Below, piece by piece: positions 7,719 to 63,110 of a DNA stretch of 64,000 bases. Under the pieces are notes generated by a model, which was not told the origin of the DNA, did not search any database, and was given only the letters and a program-made list of their open reading frames with translations. The position numbers were made by a program, and so were the translations under genes. The DNA is taken from assembly GCA_964016885.1 (NCBI GenBank), contig OZ024743.1:128092001-128156000 (forward strand), read 5' to 3'. Each line of letters opens with the position of its first letter. Position 1 is the first letter of the stretch. Source of the DNA: Eledone cirrhosa (Eukaryota).

Positions 7719-7846
7719 AGTAGTAGTAAATATTGTTTACAACTTTCCCAAACCGTCACGTGTGAAAACTGAAGAGTGGAAGTTGCAATATTATGTATAA
7801 AATGACGCACGTTACCACCACCACTACTACCACCACCACTACTACT

Positions 7847-7916
<70 letters not shown>

Positions 7917-7917
7917 T

Positions 7918-7962
<45 letters not shown>

Positions 7963-7963
7963 C

Positions 7964-8004
<41 letters not shown>

Positions 8005-8062
8005 CACCACCACTACTACCACCACCACCACTACTACTACTACCACCACCACCACTACTACC

Positions 8063-8124
<62 letters not shown>

Positions 8125-8179
8125 CACCACTACTACTACTACTACTACCACCACCACCACCACCACCACTACTACTACC

Positions 8180-8216
<37 letters not shown>

Positions 8217-8218
8217 TT

Positions 8219-8255
<37 letters not shown>

Positions 8256-8257
8256 TT

Positions 8258-8327
<70 letters not shown>

Positions 8328-8328
8328 T

Positions 8329-8360
<32 letters not shown>

Positions 8361-8470
8361 TTACCACCACCACTACTACTACTACTACTAGTACTACTAC
8401 TACTATTACCACCACTACTACTACTACTACTACTATTACCACCACCACCACTACTACTACTATTACCACC

Positions 8471-8537
<67 letters not shown>

Positions 8538-8542
8538 TTACC

Positions 8543-8576
<34 letters not shown>

Positions 8577-8633
8577 TTACCACCACCACCACTACTACTA
8601 CTACTATTACTACTACTACTACTGTTGCTGCTG

Positions 8634-8672
<39 letters not shown>
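7630..8672. repeat. (AGT)n followed by long compound (ACT/ACC/ATT)n microsatellite
   Basis: (AGT)n 7630-7727 and its complement-type repeat 7813-8672. Confidence 0.95.
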
Positions 8673-13093: not shown

Positions 13094-13127
13094 CACCTGA
13101 GGAAGGGCTTATGCCCGAAACGTCGTT
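13094..13127 (+). ncRNA. Minimal hammerhead ribozyme at a PLE 3' end (12530-13215)
   Basis: CTGAGGA-AGGGC-TTAT-GCCC-GAAA-CG-TC; classic minimal PLE form, weak stem I. Decayed relative at 26514-26545. Confidence 0.75.
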
Positions 13128-19326: not shown

Positions 19327-19357
<31 letters not shown>

Positions 19358-19464
19358 AGAAAATATATAGCTTTCACCGTATTTTTTACTAAAGGAATTT
19401 TAGCCTGATAATGGGCTTTAGAACCCTCAGATAATGTTTTGAAACAGTGAACAGATTTGAAATT

Positions 19465-19751
19465 AGAAAATATATATATATATGTATGTATGTGTATGTG
19501 TGTATGTGTGTATATGTGTATATGTATGTGTATGTGTATATATATATATATTTATATATATGTATATATGTATATATATATATATATATGTATGTGTATG
19601 TATGTATATATATATGTGTGTGTATATGTATATATATGTGTATATATGTATATGTGTGTGTGTATATATATATATATACATATATATATATGTATAAATA
19701 TGTATATAAATATATATATATGAGTGTGTATGTACGTGTGCATATGTGTAT

Positions 19752-21775: not shown

Positions 21776-24700
21776 CTGAGGATGTGTGTGTTAAGGTTTG
21801 TAAGGAATTCACGTCCACAATTTCCACGGATTCTATTCAAAGTCGGGACAATTATTGCTTTTGGTCAGAAAAGGTCATGAAGCAAATAAATTTCAAATCC
21901 ATTAACAATAAGGGCAAAAATCGATCATGATCATTCCCCTCTCTATAATTTAACTTCTTTACTCTCTCTCTGTCGCTCTTCACTCCCTATATGACAACAC
22001 TGCAGAGAGAGAAACAATGTGTATGATCAAATGGAGCGTTCTGTATATTCCCTCTGTCTATAATTTAACTGCTTTACTCTCTCTGTCGCTCTTCACTCCC
22101 TATATGACAACACTGCAGTGGAGAGTTCCGTATTGACATACGGCTTATCTGGGGCATTTTCAATCGGCTTATTGCAAATAACAACCCGCAAAATAACACT
22201 TCATATAACAGATTAATGCTATAGACACATGAATCGGAATGTAACCCGTGAACTTTTTCCTGGGCAAAATTATTCGAACAGACATGACCTCATTGCCAGA
22301 ATGTTCAGACTGAAACTGGCTAAACTCATGGCTTTAATCAAGAAGGGTCAGGTATTTGGGGGTGTAAAATGTGACATATTCACCGTCGAATGGCAAAAAC
22401 GAGGGCTGCCACATGCTCACATTTTGATTTGGTTAGCTGATAAAATCAATTCAAATTCCATAGACAGCTTCATTTCGGCTGAAATTCCTAACCCAGCAAT
22501 TGACCAGGAATTACATGACATCGTCAAAGCTAACATGGTCCGTGTGCGTCGGGTCCTAATGAGCATCACACGTGTATGAAAGGGGGTCGTGCAGTAAGGG
22601 ATACCCAAAAAAATTTGTTGACCAGACTCATACTGGTGGCAACGGGTACAGGCGGAGACGGCCCGAGAACGGTGGCTTCACCACAACAGTAAAGGGAGGT
22701 CAAGTCGACAATATATGGGTGGTCCCTTACTGTCCGCTTCTCTTGAAGATGTTCAACGCCCACATCAACGTTGAGTTTTGGAACTCCATCAAGTCGATAA
22801 AATACATATGCAAATATGTAAATAAGGGCTCTGATGCCGCAATGTTCGAATTTCAAGCTGAAAATAGCAGGGACGAGGTCATAGAATACCTGGCGGGTCG
22901 GTACATCAGTAGAAATGAAGCTTTTTGCGCCTATTTGGTTTACCCCTACACCAACGGCACCCCGCCATCGTACAGCTTGCGGTACATTTGGAAAATGGGC
23001 AAATGGTTTACTTTACGGACCAAACCGCCGCCAAGTTGGCCGCCGATCCGAAAGAGACCACTCTGACGGGTTTCTTCAAACTTTGCCAGTTTGATATATT
23101 TGCGCAAACAATTGTGTACCCCCAGGTTCCATCCTACTTTATATGGTCAAAAAACACTTGGGTGTGAAGAAAGTCAGGTCAGGATGTTGAAAGACATCCT
23201 GGTGTAAAATTTGACAGCTGTCTTGGAAGGGTTTACACTGTGCCCCAAGTCAGCATGAGTGCTTCCATCTCCGCCATCTTCTGCATGAAGTTGTAGGCCC
23301 ACAAAGTTTTCGGGCCCTCAAAACTGTTGATGGAGAAATATGTGATACGTACCGGGAAGCCTGCTTTAATCGTGGTCTTTTGGAAGATGATTCGCAATGG
23401 TATTCCGCTTTAGCAGAGGGTGCTTTGTTGAAATCACCTAAAGGTCTACGGGAACTCTTTGCCATTTAGCTTCAAAAGTGTGAATTGAGTGATCCCAAAT
23501 ATTTATGGGTCAAGTACAGAGACTTCATGTCTGAGGACTTCCTACAGTAGCCTCTAGTGGAAGTTGGTTACAGCGACATTATCTACAACAGGTCACTTAT
23601 TGATATCGAGGACGCCCTCCTCGACATGGGTGGGAGTGAGTTGGCGACGTATGGCTTGCCGTCAACCGTCAGAGAGAAAGGTAACACGTTGGCCCCGGAT
23701 TTGTTGCGGGAAACAGCATATGACATCGAATCTCTTTCCCAATACTTAGAGGAAAATGAGCCCAAACTTCTGTCGGACCAAAGGTTGGCCTATTTAACTA
23801 TCATTGACGCGGTTCAAAATCAAACTGGGGGTATTTAATTTCTCGATGCTCCTGGGGGTACCGGAAAAACTTTTGTAACGAAATTGATTCTCGCTAAGAT
23901 TCGTCAGGAGAAAATTTGCGTTGGCCGTTGCATCGTCCGGGATCGCTGCTACTTTGCTGCCGAGAGGCAGGACAGCACTTTAAACTCCCCTTGGATTTAG
24001 TAAAAACTGAGACACCAACATGCAATATCAGCACGAGTTCACACAAAGCCCTGGTTCTCAAAAAATGTTGCCTTATTGTTTGGGATGAGTGCACAAGGGT
24101 GCTCTTGAGGCATTGGACAGGACCCTGAAAGACATTAGGGATTCTACGGCTCTTATGGGTGGCGTAACCCTTCTGCTATCAAGGGATTTTCGGCAAACGC
24201 TGCCTGTCATCTCCAAAGGGACAAGAGCTGATGAAGTGCGTGCCTGCCTTAAGACGTCCATGTTGTGGCTCCAGGTGAAGAGTTTGTACCTGAGCATAAA
24301 TATGCGTGTTCATTTGCATGGTGACAACATGTCTGCAGCATTTACTCAGAACATTTTAGCACTTGGTGAGGGCAAGGTCCCTGCGGATGACAAGGGCGGC
24401 ATAGCAATCGACTCCCTGTACAACATTGTGAGCAGCCCTTCTGACCTTTGGGAAGCAGTTTTTCCTAATGTCTCATCTAACTTTAAAAACCTCGATTGGC
24501 TCAGCGAAAGAGCCATCCTTGCTCCGAAAAATATAATGGTTAATTGTATTAACGAGCAGCTGATTGAGATTCCCGGTAAAGAGCACATCTTCAAATCTAT
24601 CGACCGGTCGTCAGATCCCGACGATATCGTTAATTATCCGGTTGAGTTATTAAATTCCCTTAAGACCCCAGGGCTCCCACCTCACATTCTTAAGCTTAGG

Positions 24701-25430
24701 GTTAGCTGTCCCATTATGCTAATAAGGAACTTGCGTCCACCAAAGCACTGCAACGGTACTCGCATGGTCGTCAAGTCACTGACGGCTCACTTGATTGAGG
24801 CCACCATTGTAACGGGGTGCGGGAGAAGGGAGAATGTTTTCATTCCAAGGATGAACCTTTTCCCCTCGGCGTCAGATATCCTGTTCGATTTCCGGCGATC
24901 CCAATCCCGGTGAGACCATGTTTTGCCATGTCCATTAACAAGTCACAAGGGCAAACATTGTCGGTGGCGGGCATCCATTTGGGGGAGCCATGCTTCTCCC
25001 ATGGCCAACTTTATGTTGCCTGTTCCCGCGTAGGGAGCAGGAATGGATTTTTGCTTACACTCCTCAAGGGATGACACGCAATATCGTCTACAAAGAGGTG
25101 CTATAGATGTTGGTGCAGGTGTTGGGGGTGTTGGAGCTATGCCGCCTAGAAAACTATTTCCTGTGTAGGGTCACCCATGGCGGACAGATCTAACACCCAG
25201 CGGCATCAGGGCCACCATCTTGCAACTTTGGTCTACTAAATTCGCTATTGGAAGATTATTAACCCATCATTGATTGTCAAAAATGCTAATTGGTTCGTAA
25301 CTTTTAATAACCGGTTCAACTGCTTTATGCACTTAATTGATAAGCTTATTCGCTTTCAAGCCACGTTTACCGGTATGTAACTTTTCATAGCAAATGAACA
25401 AACCCGAGCAACGCCGGGCTAAACTGCTAG
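21760..25430 (+). mobile_element. Helitron, decayed autonomous type
   Basis: 3' hairpin CCCGAGCAACGCCGGG then CTAG|T at 25427-25430; 5' end merges with (TA)n; encodes a Rep/Hel pseudogene. Confidence 0.92.
22229..25106 (+). pseudogene. Helitron Rep (HUH)/Pif1-like helicase, frameshifted, N-terminus missing
   Basis: VEWQKRGLPHAHIL, KYICKYVNKG, LDAPGGTGKTF, IVWDEC, DFRQTLPV, FAMSINKSQGQT, HGQLYVACSRV across several frames. Confidence 0.93.
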
Positions 25431-30364: not shown

Positions 30365-31380
30365 AATAGAAAAACTAGGAATTTTCGTTTACATAAAAAA
30401 ATATTTATTGTGTATCGACCTGTTACGCGCGTTTCGCAGAGGATGGGCTCGAGGTTTTATGGACCCGACTCCAGTATCAATCTGCTCCTCAGACTGGTGA
30501 TGCGACAAAAGATATATTTTTATTGTGGTATGTGGACCGAGAAGGTATATATAGGCAATGTCTCTATTTTTGTGTGTGTGGGCATATGTGTATACTTTGG
30601 TGAGGCGGCAATGCTGGTATGTATTCACCGGTATGTATGTGCGTACTTACGTGAGCGCGCGAGCAATTAAAGATTCGTCTGTGTGGGCACGTTTTGGAAT
30701 GTGCATTGCTTGAGAGATCTGAAATTCTAAGTGAAGCACTTTTTACTAAATTGTCAGTAATATTTTGGGGGTGGTTCGAACTAACATCTATGTATCTAAG
30801 GGATTCGTTAGGTTCGTGGTACCAGTATCAGTATCTAAATCTAAAGTGACTGATTCAATGGTTATTCTAAAACCTAGATTACGGAAGAAAGAACATAAGT
30901 TTTTCCGAAACCTATCAGTGGTTCTGGGACTTACCTTGTGCAAAGCAAAAAGGCCATCATCGCGGTATCATCCGCCGGTCAGGCCTGTGAAATGATTCTT
31001 CAGATGGTGTAGGATATAAAGGCACACCAGGTCGTTAAAATATGCCGTGTCACTTGCTCCCATACTGACGTCAAATGGAGTCTCTGACTTCTTATTAATC
31101 CAGTAAGAGCTTTTGTGGTATAAGAAGGTCTTACAGACGTGGACGTCCTGCTCAACATCAGTGATGGTGGTAAAGTTCCTGGCAAAATCAAGTGCATCCT
31201 TCAGTAGAGGCTCTGAGATAGAAGCGCAGTAGTCTTCAATATCCAGTTGCAGAAAGCAGGCATTACATTTATCAGGCAATTCTTGGAACCAAGAGATTAT
31301 CTCAGAGGTTCTGCTCCAGAGTGGGAGAGGTGAGGCTGCACGCAGCGACGGTAGTAATTTATCGAGGAATTCTTTTAATG
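30365..31380 (-). mobile_element. Hydra-type PLE with RT remnant joined to HHR tail (endonuclease absent)
   Basis: ORF 30968..31441 (IISWF, FLQLDIEDYCASISE, FDVSMGASD); YRDDGL at about 30950-30967 in a shifted frame. Confidence 0.85.
30418..30498 (-). ncRNA. Type I hammerhead ribozyme
   Basis: Reverse complement: ACCAGT-CTGAGGA-GCAGA..TCTGC-GAAA-CGCGCG-TA-ACAGGT (one stem I mismatch). Confidence 0.8.
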
Positions 31381-31397
31381 TTTTAATGATATATATA

Positions 31398-33880
31398 TAT
31401 AGTGAACTGGTCATAAAGTTATTTACTCTAGTAGATAACACTGTATGCTAATCACTAATTTAATAATTTAATAAGTGAAGGAACACAAGAATATGTAAGG
31501 AAAGCAGGAAGCAAGATGATGAGATGCAGACAGGAAATAATATATATGATAACAACGATAAGTCTTCTCAACTGTATATGAAGGTAGTTTTTCTTTATTC
31601 GTGTGCTTGTGCGTGTGTGTATTACAATGGTTAAATGACATACCTGTGACTTGCTTTGTTAATCCTTGTAAGAAGGATTGGAATACATCTGAGCTGAGCC
31701 TTATGGTATAGGTCCTCAGCAGATATGTTGCAGGTCGGAAAAGCTCGACCGAAAGAGAAATAAGATGCTAAGAGCTACCTTTGGCGTAGCTGTGCCTGGC
31801 CTACTAGGCAGGCGGCCAAAAGGTGAAAACAGAGAGAGAGGTGTCGGAACGCTCCCTTATATACTGGCCACGGGGTAGTAACTCCAAATAGTTTGGTTCT
31901 CCGGAGAGATGGCGCTAGTCACTACATGGCTCTCCCCCAGACGAAAAGTCGATAATGTAGAAGTTAAATGTAGTGAAAAAGCGTACAGCACAAAACAAGG
32001 AAGGCAAAGGTAAGTATATGGTAAAAGTTTGCAAAAGGGGAAAAGTATAAAATAAGCATGCAAAAATGTAATAGGAACAAATTATTGAAAAAATAATTGT
32101 TTCTACATTTGGCACAAGGCCAGCAATTACACAGTTTATTACTGGTACTTTATTTTATCGACCCCGAAAGGATGAAAGGCAAAGTTAACCTCGGCGGGAT
32201 TTGAACTCAGAATGGCAAGGACCGTAACTCTATGCGTCAAAGCATGGCGCCCGACCCTCTACCGATACTGCCAATCCTCCGCCCGAAAATGTGTTGCCAT
32301 ATTGAAAAAATAATAAAGTTCAAATAGTGTTCACAGGAATGTTGCACAATTGCAGCAGGGAACTGTAGGAAAAGTGTATGTCCAAAGAGAATTTGAGAGC
32401 AAGTTGTTTCTGTACTGTGGGAAAATGTGAGATTCCCGATCTTCGAAGAGAATGGTGGAAATTTTGCACAGGAAGATGACTGCAAGAAGGATTCTCAGTT
32501 CTGTTTGTTGTTCTGCTGGTTCGAAGTTGGTGAGAGAAGAGCAAAGATGAAATTGTCGTTGGTTGTCTCCCATAGTCCTTTTGAAGTTGTTTCAAGGGAA
32601 ACAACTCATTCACACTTAGAAGATCCCAGAAAATGTGTTGCGCAAAGTGTCAGAAATGACAGCCAAAATTGATGGTCAGTGTTGCGGTTGAAGTTGATCT
32701 GTTTAAGTCCAGATAAAGTTGCGGTTGAAGTTACGACCATTGAAACGAGCATGCAGGATAAATGCACAGTAACTAACGCCAATTTACGACATTGTAGTGT
32801 CGCAAATCTTTTTACTGGCAAATATAAAAAATAGCTTTGGCTGATGAAGTCCTTGAAAAGAAATAGCAAAACGTGTGTATCCCTTTAAGTCGAGATTTGT
32901 GCACTACACACGTGCTGGTACAAGGTAAAATTGAAATTGAAAAAATTTCTTTTGCGCGGGAAAATTACGAGAAACACAAGATGGCTGCCGAAAATGAAAG
33001 AAGAAGGCAGCTGTCGGCCATCATAATTCTCACTGTGAATGTGATGAAGAAGAAGGAAAAACTTGGTTGAACGAGTAAGCGACAAAAAGGTGAGACATAT
33101 TTAGGTGATACAACACGTGAGGTGTAGAAAAATGTTATTGCTCGTTGGAGAAACTTTTTTTTTTTTTGTCGGAGAAAATGTGTGTCCTTGAATGCCGGAG
33201 AAATGTTTGTGTCCGAATTCCACGTTAGGTGGAAGAAAGTGTGTCCCAACGAAAAGTTGAACACGTGTTCGGTGTCTGTGTATGTCTGCATGTTCCTTAT
33301 TTTTTGTTCTTTCGGGTTGCAAATTGTTGATGAGTTTGCTGCAACGAAAGAAGAGTTTGTTTGTGTTTTTTCCATGTTGTGTGTTCGCATCACGTCGGGG
33401 TCACTACTTTAGTGAACTGGTCATAAGGTTATTTACTCTAGTAGGTAACACTGTATGCCAATTACTAATTTAATAATTTAATAAGTGAAGGAACACAAGA
33501 ATATGTAAGGAAAGCAGGAAGCAAGATGATGAGATGCAGACAGGAAATAATATATATGATAATAACGATAAGTCTTCTCAACTGTATATGAAGGTAGTTT
33601 TTCTTTATTCGTCTGCTTGTGCGTGTGTGTATTACAATAGTTAAATGACATACCTGTGACTTGCTTTGTTAATCCTTGTAAGAAGGATTGGAATACATCT
33701 GAGCTGAGCCTTATGGTATAGGTCCTCAGCAGATGTGTTGCAGGTCGGAAAAGCTCGACCGAAAGAGAAATAATATGCTAAGAGCTACCTTTGGCGTAGC
33801 CGTGCCTGGTCTACTAGGCAGGCGGCCAAAGGGTGAAAAGAGAGAGAGAGGCGTCAGAACGCTCCCTTATATACTGGCCA
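31398..33880 (-). mobile_element. Non-autonomous LTR retrotransposon (Gypsy-like)
   Basis: LTRs 31398-31926 (TGTAGTGA..TCACTA termini) and 33408-33880 (truncated); PBS matches tRNA-Trp 3' end at 33389-33406; PPT GGGGGAGAG at 31927-31938; no pol. Confidence 0.85.
32095..32284 (-). mobile_element. tRNA-derived SINE with Nin/Deu-like core, nested in the LTR element
   Basis: Homolog of 1481-1668; TATTGAAAAAATAAT on both flanks. Confidence 0.85.
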
Positions 33881-38199: not shown

Positions 38200-40493
38200 G
38201 TAAATAAATTTCCTTGTTTGTACTATCGACCATGTTATTCTTCAATTTTTCAATTTTATTACTCCAAGTTATACTTACACAGGAATACAAGTGAAATCAT
38301 AAACTCGTCATCCACGTAAACCTCTTGTTGAGTCTTACAACGCCGTACGCTTAAACTATTCATGATAAGAAGTTTTCACAACCTCTAATCGGATTACCTT
38401 TAACGATATCTTATTATCCTTCGAAAAGACCATAAAACGAACAGTGACCCTGTCACAGGACCACCAACACGGCCAGTCTGTGGAGCTAACATTGCTAGTA
38501 ACTACAGACTTTCCTACTTCCTCTCCCTGATCATACGCCCCATCATTGAAATGTCCCCAGATATATGTGACAGCACGGAGGACCTCCTCAGCAGAATCAG
38601 CAAAAATAACCGATCTAGGGACCTAACAGACTGTATAATAGGTAGTATGGATGTTGTGTCCCTATATCCATCCATTGACGAGGATTTTGCTGTGGGGAAA
38701 TGCGTAGAAATGATCAGTGAGAGCAATGTTGAATTCCGTGGGATTGATACCAGTGAGCAGTGGGACTCCTACTTAAACTTACCTATAGTAATGATTATCT
38801 AGATACATATGACCTTAGCAACCTGTGCCCTACAAGACCAGCAAGAGGCAGACCACCTACCATTATCTCAATGGCCAAGAAAACCCACACAGAAAGATGG
38901 AACAGGTGGACCAGAGCCATACGGACCCCCGAAAACCACGATGAACTAAAGAAAATGATTGCACATGCGGTGGGGGCCAGTATAAAATTAACCCTTAAGG
39001 AACATATGTTCAAATTTAATGGAAAAACATATACCCAAGAGGAGGGAGCAGCCATTGGTGTTAGCATTGCAGGTGACATAGCTAACCTATTCATGGTATG
39101 GTGGACAATAAACTTAAACTTAAACTTAAAAAACAATTAGAAGACAGCAACCTCTTAACCCTGATAATGTACTCCCGCTACGTTGATGATATAAACATCG
39201 TAGTAAAAACACCTCCACTAGAGAACAGTCAGGAATTAGAGAAAAACACCATGGAAAGCATCCAGAAAATAGCTAACTCCATCCACAAGAGTATTAGAGT
39301 TACTATAGACTACTCAAGCAAACACCCCAAACATCGATTACCTGTACTAGACACAGAGCTCTGGTTAGCTACCATTAATAACAAAAAACAAATCCTCCAT
39401 TCCCATTATGCCAAACCCATGACTTCCAAATATCTGATCCACCGAAACTCAGCTGTTTCGGATCACACCAAAATCAACATACTGATTGCGGATTTGGTAC
39501 GGGTGATGAGAAATGTGTCCGGAATGTGCAACCCCAAATAACTATAGAGTGACACATACAACACTTCATCCACCGTATGCAGTTCTCTGGTTACAATCAG
39601 AGAGATAAAATCAGAGTATATAGAGGAGCCAGAACCAAATGGGAAAAAATGGTAAATAATGATACAAATGGGACCTGCCCCTTGTATAGGAGCAAATTTT
39701 GGAATAGAATAGAAAGAACTAGGAATAAGGTTAATAGAATAGCAATAAATACCAGAGTGTAGTGTTCATCAATACAACTCCTAGAGGTGAATTAGCTTAC
39801 AAATTTAGAAAGGCCCTAGATAAACATAAACTTAATATTAAGATAGTAGAAAGACCAGGTACCTCCATAAAAACACTTATTAGCAATACATACCCTTTTC
39901 AAAGACCTCCCTGTATAGATAAGAAATGCATAATCTGTAAACTAAGCCCCCATATTAACTGTAAAACTAGAAATGTAGTATATAGCATAAGATGTACTGA
40001 AGGACAATGTGAAGATAAGAATATAGTGTACATAGGTGAGACAGCTCGTAGTATAGGGGAACGGCTAAATGAACACTGGCGAGAACTTCAAGATAAAAAA
40101 GAATTATCAATACTACACCAACATGCTAAAATAGAACATAAGGGCAAATTAGAGAACATAGAAATAAAAATAAAATCTACACACAGAAAAGACGCAATGT
40201 TTAGACAAATCACAGAGGCAATAAACATAAATGAACTCCAACCAAAATTAAATAGAAAACATGAATGGAATAGCAACATCACAACTTATAATTAAGGACA
40301 AAATGAAAACACACACACATAGAACAAACAACTAACTAGTAACATGTAAATAAACAAATAAATAAACAAATATAAACACACACAGACACCCAGATGTAAC
40401 ACATGCGCAAACTAAGCACACAACACACACACAAAAACAAGATGGCATAGGACAGAACAAAGGAGAGGCACAAAACAAAGAAAAGAATCCCCA

Positions 40494-42112: not shown

Positions 42113-42412
42113 AGTGTAACGTACAGTTAATGTCCGTTCATCTAGGTGAGCACTCTATGCGTAGATTCACGTCTGTAACAAGGTATAGAACTAAACAGAG
42201 TGTAAATATAATAATAAAAGTACGATTCGTTATGTCTTCATTACGTTTATTGAGTAGTGACGCGCGTTTCGCTATTGATCAGCTCAAAGTTCGATTTGTA
42301 TCGATCTGGCCAGACTCTAGAATCAAAAGCTCGTCGTGAGCTGATCAATAGCGAAACGCGTGTCACTACTCAATAAACGTAATGAAGACATAAATGGTCA
42401 TTTTATTGTTAT
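42110..42412. mobile_element. Fold-back PLE 3' end (family K) with HHR 3' half
   Basis: Inverted arms each with GAAA-CGCG(C/T)G-TC-ACTAC; turn inside stem II; relative at 49180-49490. Confidence 0.75.
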
Positions 42413-49148: not shown

Positions 49149-49513
49149 GTATATATGTATATATATATATATATATCCAGGGAGTGTAACACGGAGTTAC
49201 TGTAGATTCACGTCAGTATCGAGGTGTAGAGCTAAACGGATGTAATATAATAATTGTTTCTACTTTTGGCATAAGCCCAGCAATTACCAGTGTAATATAA
49301 TAATACAAGGACGAATGGTTACTCCTTCATTACGTTTATTGCCATTACTACTACAGAGATCCTACGAGCTTTGATTCCAGAGTCGGGCTAGATCAATACA
49401 GATCGAACCTTGAGCTGATCAGTAGCGAAACGCGCAACACCCACCAATAAACGTAATGAAGGAGTAACCATTCGTTCTTGTATTATTATTATTATATATA
49501 TATATATATATAT

Positions 49514-50382
49514 ATGTCAAGTAAGAAAGAATATTTTCGAAACAGCGAGCGAGTTTGAAATTATAAATGTAAGCTATCGCCGTATTTTGACTAAAGAAAT
49601 TAAAGAAAATTATTTAGCCTGATAGTGGGGTTAAGAACCTTCGGAGAAATGGAAAAAAGATGAGAATTGACGTACATGGGAGTCGAACCCACATCTTTGA
49701 TTATCCAGACCACTGTGCTACCATTACACCAACACATCACCCGTCTTCTTCCATTCAAATTAGAAGCTATAATCTTAGCGACTGTAAATGTCAAGTAAGA
49801 ATACTTTCGAAACAGCGAGCGAGTTTGAAATTATAAATATAAGCTATCGCCGTATTTTGACTAAAGAAATTAAAGAAAATTGTTTAGCCTGATAGTGGGA
49901 GTTAAGAACCCTCGGAGAAATGGAAAATTGATGAGAATTGACGTACATGGGAGTCGAACCCACATCTTTGTTTATCCAGACCACTACTGTGCTACCATTA
50001 CACCAACACATCACCCGTCTTCTTCCATTCAAATTAGAAGCTATAATCTTAGCCACTATCAGGCTAAATAATTTTCTTTAATTTCTTTAGTCAAAATACG
50101 GCGATAGCTTACATTTATAATTTCAAACTCGCTCGCTGTTTCAAAAATATTCTTACTTGACATTTACAGTTGCTAAGATTATAGCTTCTAATTTGAATGG
50201 AAGAAGACGGGTGATGTGTTGGTGTAATGGTAGCACAGTCTGGATAACCAAAGTTGTTGGTTAGACTCCCATGTACGTCAATTCTCATCTTTTTCCATTT
50301 CTCCGAGGGTTCTTAACCCCACTATCAGGCTAAATAATTTTCTTTAATTTCTTTAGTCAAAATACGGTGATAGCTTACATTC

Positions 50383-50389
<7 letters not shown>
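49514..50389. repeat. Head-to-head multimers of an approximately 270-bp unit carrying a tRNA-like cloverleaf
   Basis: Two units on minus (49514-50053) and about 1.25 units on plus (50054-50389); (TA)n on both sides. Confidence 0.85.
49668..49738 (-). tRNA. tRNA-like sequence (apparent anticodon GGA, short variable loop); probably tRNA-derived rather than functional
   Basis: GATGTGT-TG-GTGT-AATGGTA-GCAC-A-GTGGT-CTGGATA-ATCAA-AGAT-GTGGG-TTCGACT-CCCAT-GTACGTC-A, with T6 about 10 nt downstream; copies at 49939-50012 (-) and 50213-50280 (+). Confidence 0.55.
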
Positions 50390-50439
<50 letters not shown>

Positions 50440-50442
<3 letters not shown>

Positions 50443-51808
50443 GATACGGAAACACCTGTAAGAGTGGTGAGGGTGGAAATGAAGGGACAAGTGTTGCAGC
50501 AGGAACGGGAACATGGATGAGAGCCGGGTGGAGTCGTGGGAGAGGACGAGAAGGTACTGCGAAGCAGGAGGTCGCGAAGGTTGCGGGCGCGCTTAAAAGC
50601 AGTAATGGGTGGGTTTGGAAAAAAGCGAGAAGTGACGAGGTCAGAAGAGCGGATGCGAGGGGAACGGAGGATATGTCACCGGAGTTGTAGGATGGTGAGG
50701 TGGTATGTGAGAGGGAAAGGAACGCGGGTGTTGGGAGGGTGGGGCTGAGGTGAGAGGGCTGTGGTGTGATGTGTTTCACGGGTGCGGGTGAGAGCAGCTT
50801 GGATCAAGGTGGGTAGGATATCCACGCTGGATGAAGCAGGATCCATGCGAAGGGAATAGGTTTCGAAATCGTCGTCCTGGTTACAGAGCCGACGAAGACG
50901 AAGGAATTGGGAATAGGGTATGGAGTGTTTGGTGTGGGTTGGATGGGAGGAGGTAAAGTCGAGATAAGATTGGGAGTCTGTTGGTTTAATGTAGATGGAA
51001 GTAGAGAGGGTGTGGTGAGAGTGATTAATAGATAGAGAGATATCTAGAAAAGCGACAGAGGAATCGGAGACAGAGGCAGTGAAATTGAGAGCAGGATGGA
51101 AAGATTGGACAAAAGAAAGAAAACAGTCGAACTGTTCTCGTGATAGAGAGGTGGCGCCGATACAGTCGTCGATATAACGACCGTATAGCTCAGGAGTCGG
51201 TCCAGCGTACTGGGAGAAGATCTGGGCTTCGACGTAGCCAACAAACAAGTTGGCATAGTTTGGACCCATTCTGGTTCCCATCGCTGCCCCAGATACCTCC
51301 CGAAAATTCACCCGAAAAAGAAAAGCCATTGAGGGTGAGAACAAGCTCAGCCAGACGGAGAAGAATGGTAGTGCTGGGGTAAGGGGGTAGGGCGTAAATC
51401 TAAAAAATATTGGAGAGCGCGGAGGCCGTCATCATGAGGAGTGACGGTATAGAGAGAGTTGATGTCCAGGGTAAAGAGAAGGCGGGAGGGACCAGGAAGG
51501 AAGGAGAAGGAGTTGAAGATTCTAAGGGCATGAATTGTATCGTGGATGTGGGAGGGGAGATTGCCGACCACGGGGCGAGGATGGTGTCTTAATATTCAGA
51601 AATTATCTCGGTGGAGCAGTTGCACGCAGAAACGATAGGACGGCCAGGATTATTTTGTTTGTGTATTTTGGGGAGGAAGTAGATGGTGGGTGTGAGGGGG
51701 GTGCGTACAATAAGGTTGGTGGTTGTGGGGGGAGAGTGGGGAGGAGATGAGCTCGTGGATGGTGGAGGACACGAGTTGTTGATAGCCAAGAGTGGGATCG
51801 GAGGATAT
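50440..51808 (-). pseudogene. Neptune-like PLE reverse transcriptase and linker (inverted segment)
   Basis: LPKIHKQNNPGRPIVS, LFTLDINSLYT, GAAMGTRMGPNYANLF, RYIDDC, KPTDSQSYL, SIPYSQFLRLRRLC. Confidence 0.9.
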
Positions 51809-52658
51809 TGCGGGTCTTTATATATCGGACAAACGGGACGCCGTATGGCGGACCGTTTTGCCGAGCATTTGAGTGACATACGACTTGGTTTGGATACTCC
51901 TGTCGCCCATCATTTCTGTTCTCCTGGTCATTCTTCTCTACATGTTTCAGTCCTGGGTGTCCTTTTACATCATTGGATCACAGGCCTCGCGCACCAGGAC
52001 TGAACAAAGACTGATTCACCGCCTTGGGTCCTATTCCCCTCTTGGACTAAACTCACCTCCCCAATTTCTCTAATACGCCGTCCATTATCACACCCCTACA
52101 TTTCTCTTCATCATTAACATCTTCTCCTACAACTAATACAGGCCGAATATACATGATCAATCCACTTTTCCCTTCACTGCTCTGTATACACACATACACA
52201 TCCTTATATTAACATACTTTTGCTCATAGCTTCGTACTTACATACACACACACTCTTTTACTCACATATACAAAACATTTTTTCTTAGCTTCGTACGGAC
52301 TTATAACACACACACACATGCACAAGTATAGCTCTTTTTCCAAAACGGGTTTTTTTCCATTTCAGGTAGAAGCGCTCCATCATCCACTTTTCTAAAAAAT
52401 AAATCAAACACAAAACGCCAGCACCAACAGTTTTCCAAGAGATGTCAACATGAATGGACCTGTTATTTTTATCTAAAGACATTTTTTCCAATTCCAACCC
52501 GCCCGTCTCCTCAATCTATCTTATTTCTCATTCTTTCTTCTGATGAAGGAATAGCGTCCGAAACGTTAAGGGTCTCTTCCTGCTATCTCAAGCGTTAACC
52601 TAATATATTCCTTCCATATACTGTACCAATTGTATTGTTATTTCTGTTTACCTTTTAC

Positions 52659-52789: not shown

Positions 52790-53640
52790 CATGTCCGAGG
52801 ACGTCTGATGTCTCGAAGGCGACACGTCTGAGGTCTCGAAGGCGACACGTCTGAGGTCTCGAAGGCGACACGTCTGAGGTCTCGAAGGCGACACGTCTGA
52901 GGTCTCGAAGGCGACCGGTGCAAAGAGAACAAGACTCTGTATTTGATTGACTTTCTGCTCTCTGCATTGTAGGCAGCGGTACCGAGGTTTGTAGCTGAGG
53001 CAACTAAGTTGGAAGCGGAGAACGTGTCACAGCATGTCGCTCCCTAGATGAGGGATTTACCTCCTTCGAAATAAAAGAGGATAATTTCTTTGGGGTGATT
53101 GCCGTCTTTACGGTTGAGGCCTGCGGGATCCAGTTTCGACGGGAAGCCGCCTGCGTCAAGGCTCCTTTTCATTATGTCGTTGATTGTTGCATGTTGGGTG
53201 AACCTGTCAGTTTTCTGGCAGCATGAAAGTGGGTGCAGTCCGAACTCGTCGACGACAGCTCCACAACGGCATTTGTGTGGTTCAAGGTACGTTGGATATT
53301 TGTATACTGGGGACGAAGGGGCCTTCGCTGGTCCTGTGGGCCAGAGCCTGTTCCAGTTCGTGTGTCGCATCAGGTTCTGCCGTCTTGCTGAGGACCTCGC
53401 TGATGAGGGTGCGACTGGAGGAGATTAAGGAGGGGTAGGCCGGCAGTGCCAGATCTGATGCGGATCGGAAACCGAGGCCACTGAACCTCACAGAGAGCTT
53501 CTCCGGTTGCCAGTCAGCGCTGTCGAAACTGACATTGCAGATGAGTTCCTCACTGCGTCGGATGGTGACATCGAGTTCATCGAGGTGATCTGCGAGAGGG
53601 TGACAAGGTGCCCCACGAAGAAATGTTCACAACAGTATGA
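52790..53640 (-). mobile_element. CRE-like non-LTR retrotransposon fragment
   Basis: GLGFRSASDLALPAY, CRCGAVVDEFGLHPLSC, LDPAGLNRKDG, VPVAFET. Confidence 0.8.
52801..52915. repeat. 23-bp minisatellite, five copies
   Basis: (ACGTCTGAGGTCTCGAAGGCGAC)x5, amplified from the CRE VAFETSDV codons. Confidence 0.9.
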
Positions 53641-61857: not shown

Positions 61858-62376
61858 TCAAAATTTATGGAAGCAAGTTGCAAATAACACGTTTTTCTTA
61901 TTAATTAAATTACCATAATTATTAATTATTAATAGAGTTTCCAAATTGCAAAGATTGCAGATTGGTGAGATGGAAGCGTTCCGATAGGATTCAGAGTTTT
62001 TAAGTTTAACCCAAGAAATTGAGTATTTTATATTTTTCTCTTTTAAAGACCATATTAATTGTGATAATAAAGTAGAAAGTTTTTTATCTGGATTAGAGAA
62101 AGAATGTTTATGATTGGAAAAGTGAAGTTTAAAGTTCGATGAAGTTGCACCTATGTAGTTATAAGTAATATTATTATTTGTTTTAATGGTACATTTATAT
62201 TCTAAATTTTTATCAAGGCAATTATTTTGTAAAGGGCATTCAGATTTCCTTCTACAGTTACAGTTCAATTCAATGCTATTTCCATAACCTAAACTGTTCG
62301 TATTATCATTGTTGATATTTCTAGGTGTTCTACTATATGTGTTTAAATTATTGTTATTCGCATTACCTACTGTATT

Positions 62377-62409
<33 letters not shown>

Positions 62410-62661
62410 GTTATTATCGCTAATTATATGTTGGTTTGAATTAAGAATTTTGCTATTAATGTTTGCAATATTTTGAGCAATATTCATAGTTGTTGAGTAA
62501 GAAAGTTTATCTGTGTGTCTATTGAAGATAGAGTAACACTTATGTGATCTAGGGAAACATTTATCTAAGGCTTTAAAAAATAAATGTGCTAAAGGTGTTT
62601 TAATAGCTAAAGACGCTGGTGGGGCATACCAAATAATAGATCTAGTTCTAATTTTTTCCAC
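61858..62661 (-). pseudogene. PLE linker plus GIY-YIG endonuclease, open over 267 aa
   Basis: IIWYAPP, CNCRRKSECPLQNNC, YKC..YIGATS, NHKHSF, LSQLIWSLK, CNLCNLE, CFH. Confidence 0.88.
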
Positions 62662-63110
62662 GATTTATTCTCCAAATTGTTATTTTTTATTTATATTTTT
62701 ACAGTCAGTTTTATTTTTATTATTATTATTATTATAAATATTGTGTTTATAATTACTATTATTTTTTTCTACATATTCAATATTATTTTTAGATCCTGCT
62801 TTATGTAACGCTTCATTATAGTATCCAGCTTTACTATTAAATTACGAGGTAATTATATTAGACCCCAACAATCATAATTAAAGCAACATACAGATGTTTA
62901 ATCACACCCTCCCCGATGGATTTTCATGAAGAAGCATGTACTTAAACCTCTATGATGATGATTCTTCTCATAAAATTAATTTGTTGGTAAAAAACATCGG
63001 TAAAAGACACCTCCACTGATTCTAGTGGGAAGTAATTTTTATTTTCGTGTGTTCTTAAAATAAAAAAATATATGATATTTATTCATACATAGTATATATT
63101 ATATTATTTA

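Follow-up and report, generated by a model that had tools for sequence, protein, structure and literature searches.

How does a short non-coding repeat with a tRNA-like cloverleaf come to lie in tandem copies on opposite strands between two runs of (TA)n? This question is raised by an element at positions 49514..50389 of the 64-kb stretch of Eledone cirrhosa DNA analyzed here (the window). We consider it likely that this non-coding tandem repeat, which has a cloverleaf related to tRNA-Gln but no ribozyme, is inserted into (TA)n by a Penelope-like element (PLE) that copies it from RNA methylated by the host at A58.

The original prediction had described two minus-strand and about 1.25 plus-strand copies of a unit of ~270 bp, placed head-to-head and flanked by (TA)n, and this arrangement was borne out. 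Between a left (TA)n target run (49493..49515) and a right (TA)25 target run (50390..50440), the element, a member of subfamily gamma, consists of a minus arm (49514..50057) of two tandem gamma units (2.0 as measured) and a plus arm (50053..50389) of 1.26 units; five bases at the inversion junction (50053..50057) are common to both arms. The further claim that the arms start and end in different phases applies to the inner 5' ends, which vary, but not to the outer ends, which fall at two fixed 3' sites. The minus arm ends at the distal site, B (assigned from the ends of gamma copies at +38 to +42 of the anchor), and the plus arm at the proximal site, A, without the ~40-nt tail. Site A is enclosed by a 7-bp stem (49542..49583 on the minus strand, where 49577-49583 pairs with 49542-49548), with further copies at 49812-49853 (minus) and 50098-50139 (plus). 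At two pairs of this stem, both partner bases differ from one subfamily to another; these are few independent events, in a stem that was proposed from the same sequences.

Two of the three predicted cloverleaves exceeded the Rfam tRNA threshold and were called by both ARAGORN and Rfam. Copy 1 (49668..49738, minus strand, 71 nt, 46.4 bits) has a 4-nt variable loop and GGA in the anticodon position, and copy 2 (49939..50012, minus strand, 33.7 bits) carries a 3-nt insertion in the anticodon arm. The third copy (50213..50280, plus strand, 23.6 bits) is decayed, with a 3-nt deletion and an altered T-loop, and is under the Rfam gathering score. A58, which we take to be a base of the B box, is at 49683, 49954 and 50265, respectively. 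A T tract, possibly a Pol III terminator, is found about 10 nt past the cloverleaf. The T6 tract claimed previously is present in copy 1 (49653..49658, minus strand), but copy 2 has T4 (49924-49927) and the plus arm T5 (50290-50294, plus strand). T5 is also the family majority and is kept 10 nt past the cloverleaf in all four subfamilies. Such a tract should halt Pol III well ahead of sites A and B, so that Pol III is unlikely to make the whole unit in a straightforward way; a whole-unit RNA would need read-through or read-in from other promoters.

As had been noted, the element has neither an ORF nor a hammerhead: the only frame of at least 120 aa was derived from (TA)n and overlapped the last 9 bases of the element, and a pattern script detected no CUGANGA core on either strand of the majority units of three subfamilies. 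Relaxed to a core-plus-CGAAA pattern, that script did pick up 9 hammerhead-like cores in other parts of the 64-kb window. Hammerhead-pattern matches at delta copies were located in flanks only, and no Rfam ribozyme family was matched at E≤10. The miRNA matches in the Rfam scan were rejected as inverted-repeat artefacts, far under gathering scores.

The family proved to be dispersed, high-copy and non-autonomous, as predicted. In the 3.0-Gb genome, an 18-base D-arm motif had 1,323 exact matches and a 24-base body motif 3,119, with 0 matches for the reversed-pattern control of each. The unit is thus neither confined to this locus nor part of an ordinary tRNA array. The unit length is 260 bp in subfamily alpha, 290 bp in beta and 269 bp in gamma. 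Copies are up to 97–98% identical to the majority of their own subfamily, suggesting recent spreading, and the medians outside delta are 94–97%. Delta, an older fourth subfamily that surfaced during a search for real tRNA genes, had 68 exact motif matches and a median of 91% to its majority. Alpha was the commonest subfamily in the D-arm sample. Head positions 8–68 are identical across alpha, beta and gamma (61/61, of which 18 were fixed by the search motif), and the remainder of the unit is 87–88% identical. Tandem and opposite-strand joints of the family were also seen in two runs of one sample, which may be the assembly's own. Within the window, a second copy of the family, of subfamily alpha, is a short fold-back in a (TA)n tract (19355..19472) and has no tRNA head. 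A 311-bp tandem repeat was observed beside a gamma copy 30 kb before the window (L006:2165-3139 / L186).

The layout of insertions was analyzed using the first 100 D-arm matches on C1, from which 7 overlapping and 2 duplicated loci and 2 matches from a biased first search were removed, leaving 75 loci with 79 insertions. These comprised 54 head-to-head and 25 single-armed insertions and no tail-to-tail ones. We found that 119 of 133 outer ends were within windows A and B, which make up 16–18% of the unit, although the windows were drawn after the data had been seen and arms of one insertion are non-independent counts. Outer ends on either side of an insertion correspond to 3' termini of the tRNA-sense strand, and 111 of the 133 touched (TA)n, compared with 16% of random window positions. 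Among 42 classifiable pairs, 40 were A+B, 2 were A+A and none was B+B (p 4e-10), and 12 more pairs had one end elsewhere. Similarly, a second, body-anchored sample gave 18 A+B, 1 A+A and 1 B+B, besides 5 pairs in which one end fell outside both sites and 30 cases that were either single or unresolved, so that A+B pairing was observed in 58 of 62 classifiable pairs when both samples were pooled. The spacing between the two sites was ~40 nt in alpha and gamma and ~60 nt in beta.

A Penelope-type insertion had been suggested previously, and the two fixed 3' sites, the inverted 5' arm and the (TA)n targets are all consistent with it. For PLEs, Craig et al. (PMC8557442) describe insertions in which a partial tandem is accompanied by an inverted 5' copy and by a tail of 30–40 bp at one end. 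According to the in vitro work of Frangieh et al. (PMC11167929), the tail corresponds to the distance between two internal reverse transcription start sites, both target strands are cut and extended, and hammerhead cleavage is dispensable. Two start sites that leave such a tail are described in these two reports as unique to PLEs (PMC11167929; PMC8557442). The Eledone family shows partial tandems with an inverted, 5'-truncated copy, a tail at one end and a microsatellite target, and its mobilization by a Penelope-like element is very probable.

No individual PLE partner emerged from the loci searched. A profile of the tail gave a best E value of 1.9 against 506 kb of masked sequence made up of flanks and the window, and of 2 against 50 of the 10,596 GIY-YIG candidates in the genome; every long frame in the 50 loci had a C-terminal endonuclease, and clades with an N-terminal endonuclease were outside this sample. 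A stretch of the plus arm matched part of a 3' UTR in one PLE family at 17 of 18 bases, but we rejected this match, which was AT-rich, weaker against the majority unit and not located at the end of that family. We recognized no PLE chimera at inner junctions. At three loci (L023, L059 and L067), inner ends were fused to pieces of other short repeats, one of them with a different tRNA-like head, as possible template switches or nested insertions. Two PLE families with a C-terminal GIY-YIG domain and long open frames of up to 938 aa were abundant (L221, L222, L226, L228, L229 and L232; L197, L201, L227, L233 and L234). The pattern found no hammerhead core just past their frames, and they may be hammerhead-less partners.

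In the window, a PLE copy (50441-52655), which we take to be Neptune-like from its motifs, adjoins the element across (TA)25. It is itself arranged head-to-head with (TA)n at both ends, and contains a reverse transcriptase fragment (50676-51428, minus strand) and an endonuclease remnant with a hammerhead core at 52540 (plus strand). Short non-coding, retrozyme-like fold-back elements in (TA)n are present at 49178-49494 (minimal hammerhead core at 49415) and 42282-42400 (cores at 42282 and 42341). Further PLE-like fragments are located at 49-420, 30968-31447, 38404-40295 and 61858-62664; Pfam classified only a GIY-YIG domain at 39738-40295 among the PLE fragments of the window. Other hammerhead cores are at 13097, 21663, 26838, 30264 and 40498. 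A decayed Helitron is the probable source of PIF1 helicase fragments (Pfam PF05970, PF21530) at 22217-24913, upstream of which are Rep-like frames. The window also contains five copies of a 23-bp unit (52801-52915) and an 850-bp (ACT)n/(ACC)n tract (7823-8672).

With regard to the origin of the head, comparison of sequences suggests that it is probably derived from tRNA-Gln, since 18 nt of the D-arm in delta match tRNA-Gln genes in the same genome without a difference (these genes were found by that motif) and the delta acceptor stem forms six Watson-Crick pairs and one G-U. The whole head reached only ~42 of 71 in alignment score against tRNA-Gln, with one other isotype compared. The head is unlikely to decode, because GGA is combined with a short variable loop of 4 nt and the anticodon loop is variable: positions 32–33 differ in ~20% of copies, and delta has a different anticodon loop. 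A long variable arm is needed by tRNA-Ser. A G.A combination is also located atop the anticodon stem. Thus, an anticodon matched to the structural type and a conserved anticodon loop, as expected of a functional tRNA gene, are both absent from the head. Clusters of real tRNA-Gln genes were found at C1:168.21-168.28 Mb, C6:47.25-47.30 Mb and C9:34.97 Mb; one cluster has a 277-bp period, and one variant reads as a CTA anticodon.

We then turn to the 5' ends of arms, for which phase is counted from G1 of the cloverleaf, phase 56 being canonical position 58. In a sample of 100 listed body-motif matches, each extended upstream, 41 of 68 arms that reached phase 66 stopped at phases 55–66 (21/36 in alpha and 20/32 in beta), and none of the remaining 27 stopped at phases 33–54. 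In other words, ~60% of arms break off no more than 10 nt to the 3' side of A58, most of them at an adjoining palindromic 4-mer, and only if position 58 is A. There were 26 stops at phases 61–62, where the palindromic 4-mer permits fold-back and a TA-like 5-mer permits annealing to the target. Apparent 5' ends at phase 41 were traced to misaligned fold-backs at 61–62, and other modifications were rejected as the source of stops at phases 27 and 32, which are explained by microhomology in the anticodon stem. Delta provides a natural comparison: it has T58 in 44 of 45 copies with T-stem and palindrome unchanged, and only 3 of 52 arms stopped there (all 68 matches examined; Fisher p 2e-10), although delta is older (91% vs 94–97%), has a further difference at position 59 and may have relied on a different enzyme. 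In addition, at the upstream second T-arm of A58 subfamilies reached by arms that had already read through one cloverleaf, only 2 of 20 arms stopped (p 7e-5; 95 of 100 matches retained, one array and two duplicate loci having been dropped). These two results indicate that sequence and fold alone do not explain the stop. It has been reported that m1A stalls reverse transcriptases and that the GUUCRA T-loop-like motifs methylated by TRMT6/61A include some in RNAs other than tRNA (PMC6076376), and we consider it likely that m1A58 is the cause of the stop. The T-arm data are most simply read as reflecting two pools of template, one short and bearing m1A58, the other long and unmodified.

Another concentration of 5' ends was observed near tRNA +1, from about -5 to +9 (20/100; rate ratio 3.2, p 6e-5). 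With arms stopping at A58 and at +1, the RNA of the element appears to be handled like a tRNA. In the D-arm sample, 57 of 121 arms exceed one unit, and 75 of 121 run more than 15 nt beyond +1 into the preceding unit, in line with the earlier remark that sequence upstream of the tRNA is retained. We infer that this "leader" is more aptly regarded as the 3' end of the unit before it. Because copying would start inside the RNA, as the data of PMC11167929 suggest, the last unit would lack any sequence past site B, which would persist only where units are in tandem; this may account for both the absence of the leader from the last unit and its retention elsewhere.

How the multimers arise is the point at which alternatives have to be weighed first, since a circle, read-through or later unequal crossover may each produce them. 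If RNase P released monomers that were then circularized by ligation and reverse-transcribed in a rolling-circle mode, unit junctions should be precise, and they are, with no extra indels at +1; also, units within one insertion share non-majority variants 3–5 times more often than units of different insertions. The +1 cluster, moreover, persists in delta (12/36) despite the altered B box of this subfamily. However, a circle would give no +1 cluster at all, a methylated circle would block each turn whereas upstream T-arms do not, and several 5' ends are located 3–5 nt upstream of +1, beyond an RNase P cut. Long arrays also hold structured, non-identical units. For example, units are 3% apart in an array of ~10 gamma units at C4:61.010-61.012 Mb (L115/L188) and 15% apart in one of ~26 alpha units at C1:131.459-131.466 Mb (L083/L187/L190), of which the latter retains an inverted 5' arm and a site-B end (L083). 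On this balance, we regard rolling-circle copying as unlikely.

Another possibility is that the element is a PLE passenger truncated not by a methyl block but because the RNA is physically cleaved within the T-loop or next to it, as in tRF-3-like fragments, or by some other B-box-dependent property of RNA made by Pol III. It draws on observations that also weigh against m1A58: most stops are at phases 61–62, not 57, which is 4–5 nt short of the predicted block (4/41 are at 55–58), so that trimming must be assumed under m1A58; and the stops depend on A58 but without a misincorporation signature, read-through copies having no excess change at this base (261/272 A). On the other hand, stops thin out to phases 55–58 and then vanish (4 in 118 arm-bases at 55–58 vs 0 in 594 at 33–54), which is the edge expected of an A58 block, and both arms of one insertion (L145) extend to phase 56–57. 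An RNA cut therefore seems to us quite improbable as the origin of the truncation, and methylation of A58 is retained as the preferred explanation.

The tRNA head with its A and B boxes, the frequent 5' truncation and the (TA)n flanks would also suit an ordinary tRNA SINE mobilized by a LINE, with arrays and inversions formed later by recombination in (TA)n. Strict end pairing and read-through across unit boundaries are, however, not features of SINEs, and here the multi-unit arms are permuted, run across unit boundaries and show neither a single 3' end nor an A tail. This reading, largely refuted by the end pairing, is very improbable.

Finally, matches to the beta unit junction were strand-skewed (76 vs 796), and this was traced to C28:19440624-19716546, a ~276-kb single-strand satellite of ~950 beta-like units (estimated by length; the array was read in slices). 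A58 was kept in 109 of 109 sampled units, and three changes absent from the dispersed beta majority were near-fixed (108, 106 and 107 of 109 units). The array begins at tRNA +5 beside (TA)n, as an insertion would, and its other end is cut at phase 81. The insertion-like start and the private changes identify it as a descendant and rule it out as the source of dispersed copies. Although such an array exists, the view that the family is a satellite or tRNA gene array with occasional retroposition, its dispersed copies being by-products of C28, has hardly any probability given these diagnostic bases and this start, the lack of strand excess in alpha (123 vs 120) and the fact that real tRNA-Gln genes have no flank in common with the unit.

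Taken as a PLE passenger truncated at m1A58, the element could spread as follows. A PLE reverse transcriptase with a GIY-YIG endonuclease would copy it into (TA)n; a dimer of the enzyme would nick both target strands, and two cDNAs would begin at the internal sites A and B near the conserved stem. Joining of the cDNA 3' ends by microhomology would give head-to-head arms. A short, tRNA-like processed RNA with m1A58 would block the enzyme and yield promoter-less, dead copies, whereas a second RNA pool, longer than one unit and unmodified, would give tandem copies that restore the sequence past site B and seed new rounds. The +1 cluster of 5' ends may represent either the Pol III start or an RNase P cut. 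A broader scheme is possible but speculative: in a class of Penelope parasites, a tRNA mimic may replace the hammerhead, with RNase P at +1 and TRMT6/61A at A58 defining the mobile RNA. In such a scheme, m1A58 would be a host brake that leaves most new copies as promoter-less stubs, the genome would hold a fossil record of this RNA modification at base resolution, and the T58 subfamily would escape the brake.

If correct, the preferred reading adds tRNA-headed elements to hammerhead retrozymes as parasites of PLEs, and gives PLEs a counterpart of SINEs and of Helenus. The strict A+B pairing supports, from insertions made in vivo, the view that two cDNAs are primed on opposite strands, which is a step of the PLE mechanism still under discussion. 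A truncation that depends on A58, and for which T58 serves as a natural control, would amount to a DNA record of RNA modification on the template of a retroelement; it points to tRNA methylation as something that may restrain retrotransposition. A template of 260 nt is well suited to the in vitro assay published for PLEs. Copies of the family also raise tRNA gene counts falsely, and one insertion grew into the 276-kb satellite.

Among known systems, tRNA-derived SINEs combine a tRNA head with an unrelated body and have 5' ends at +1, whereas the Eledone element is distinguished by two internal 3' sites, head-to-head arms, permuted multi-unit copies and no LINE-type tail. Our literature search returned no description of a hammerhead-less, tRNA-headed PLE passenger; Repbase, Dfam, subscription journals and supplements were outside this search, and a repeat library may thus hold the family. 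Nor did it return any description of A58-linked genomic truncation, subscription journals and supplements again being outside its range. Helenus and TRIMp3, as described in PMC10886601, are likewise non-autonomous and have a tRNA-like Pol III promoter inside the repeat unit (predicted in the Eledone element), but they are LTR-type elements with a PBS, a PPT and a 4–5-bp TSD and follow another mobilization route. Closer similarity was observed to non-autonomous Chlamys elements such as MRC1 and to Naiad insertions (PMC8557442), which also have no canonical hammerhead and form head-to-tail multimers with an inverted 5' copy, a 30–40-bp tail at one end and microsatellite targets, (TA)n in the case of Naiads. 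Such elements generally share their 3' end with an autonomous family, which was not found for the Eledone element in the loci searched, and the descriptions in PMC8557442 report no tRNA module.

Animal non-LTR retrozymes, proposed to be non-autonomous PLE derivatives, resemble the Eledone element in their ~300-bp, AT-rich, non-coding tandem units, which range from monomers to arrays of hundreds (PMC7229834; bioRxiv 10.64898/2026.07.22.740005). They carry a type I hammerhead in each unit and have circular RNA, whereas the Eledone element has a cloverleaf and no hammerhead; a term search of the preprint (bioRxiv 10.64898/2026.07.22.740005) gave no mention of tRNA. The nearest precedent is Sm-alpha of Schistosoma, together with Sj-alpha (PMC2770079, PMC6765202), which has a tRNA-Gln-derived module, as the Eledone element probably does, and like it forms tandem copies; the counterpart of its Pol III promoter is here a pair of predicted A and B boxes. 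The descriptions of Sm-alpha in these reports include Pol III transcription, a hammerhead that frees monomers, and proposed multimeric transcripts, with single copies losing the ability to spread. In contrast, the Eledone element has no hammerhead, and its PLE-type two-site ends and A58 truncation do not appear in those descriptions and set it apart from Sm-alpha.
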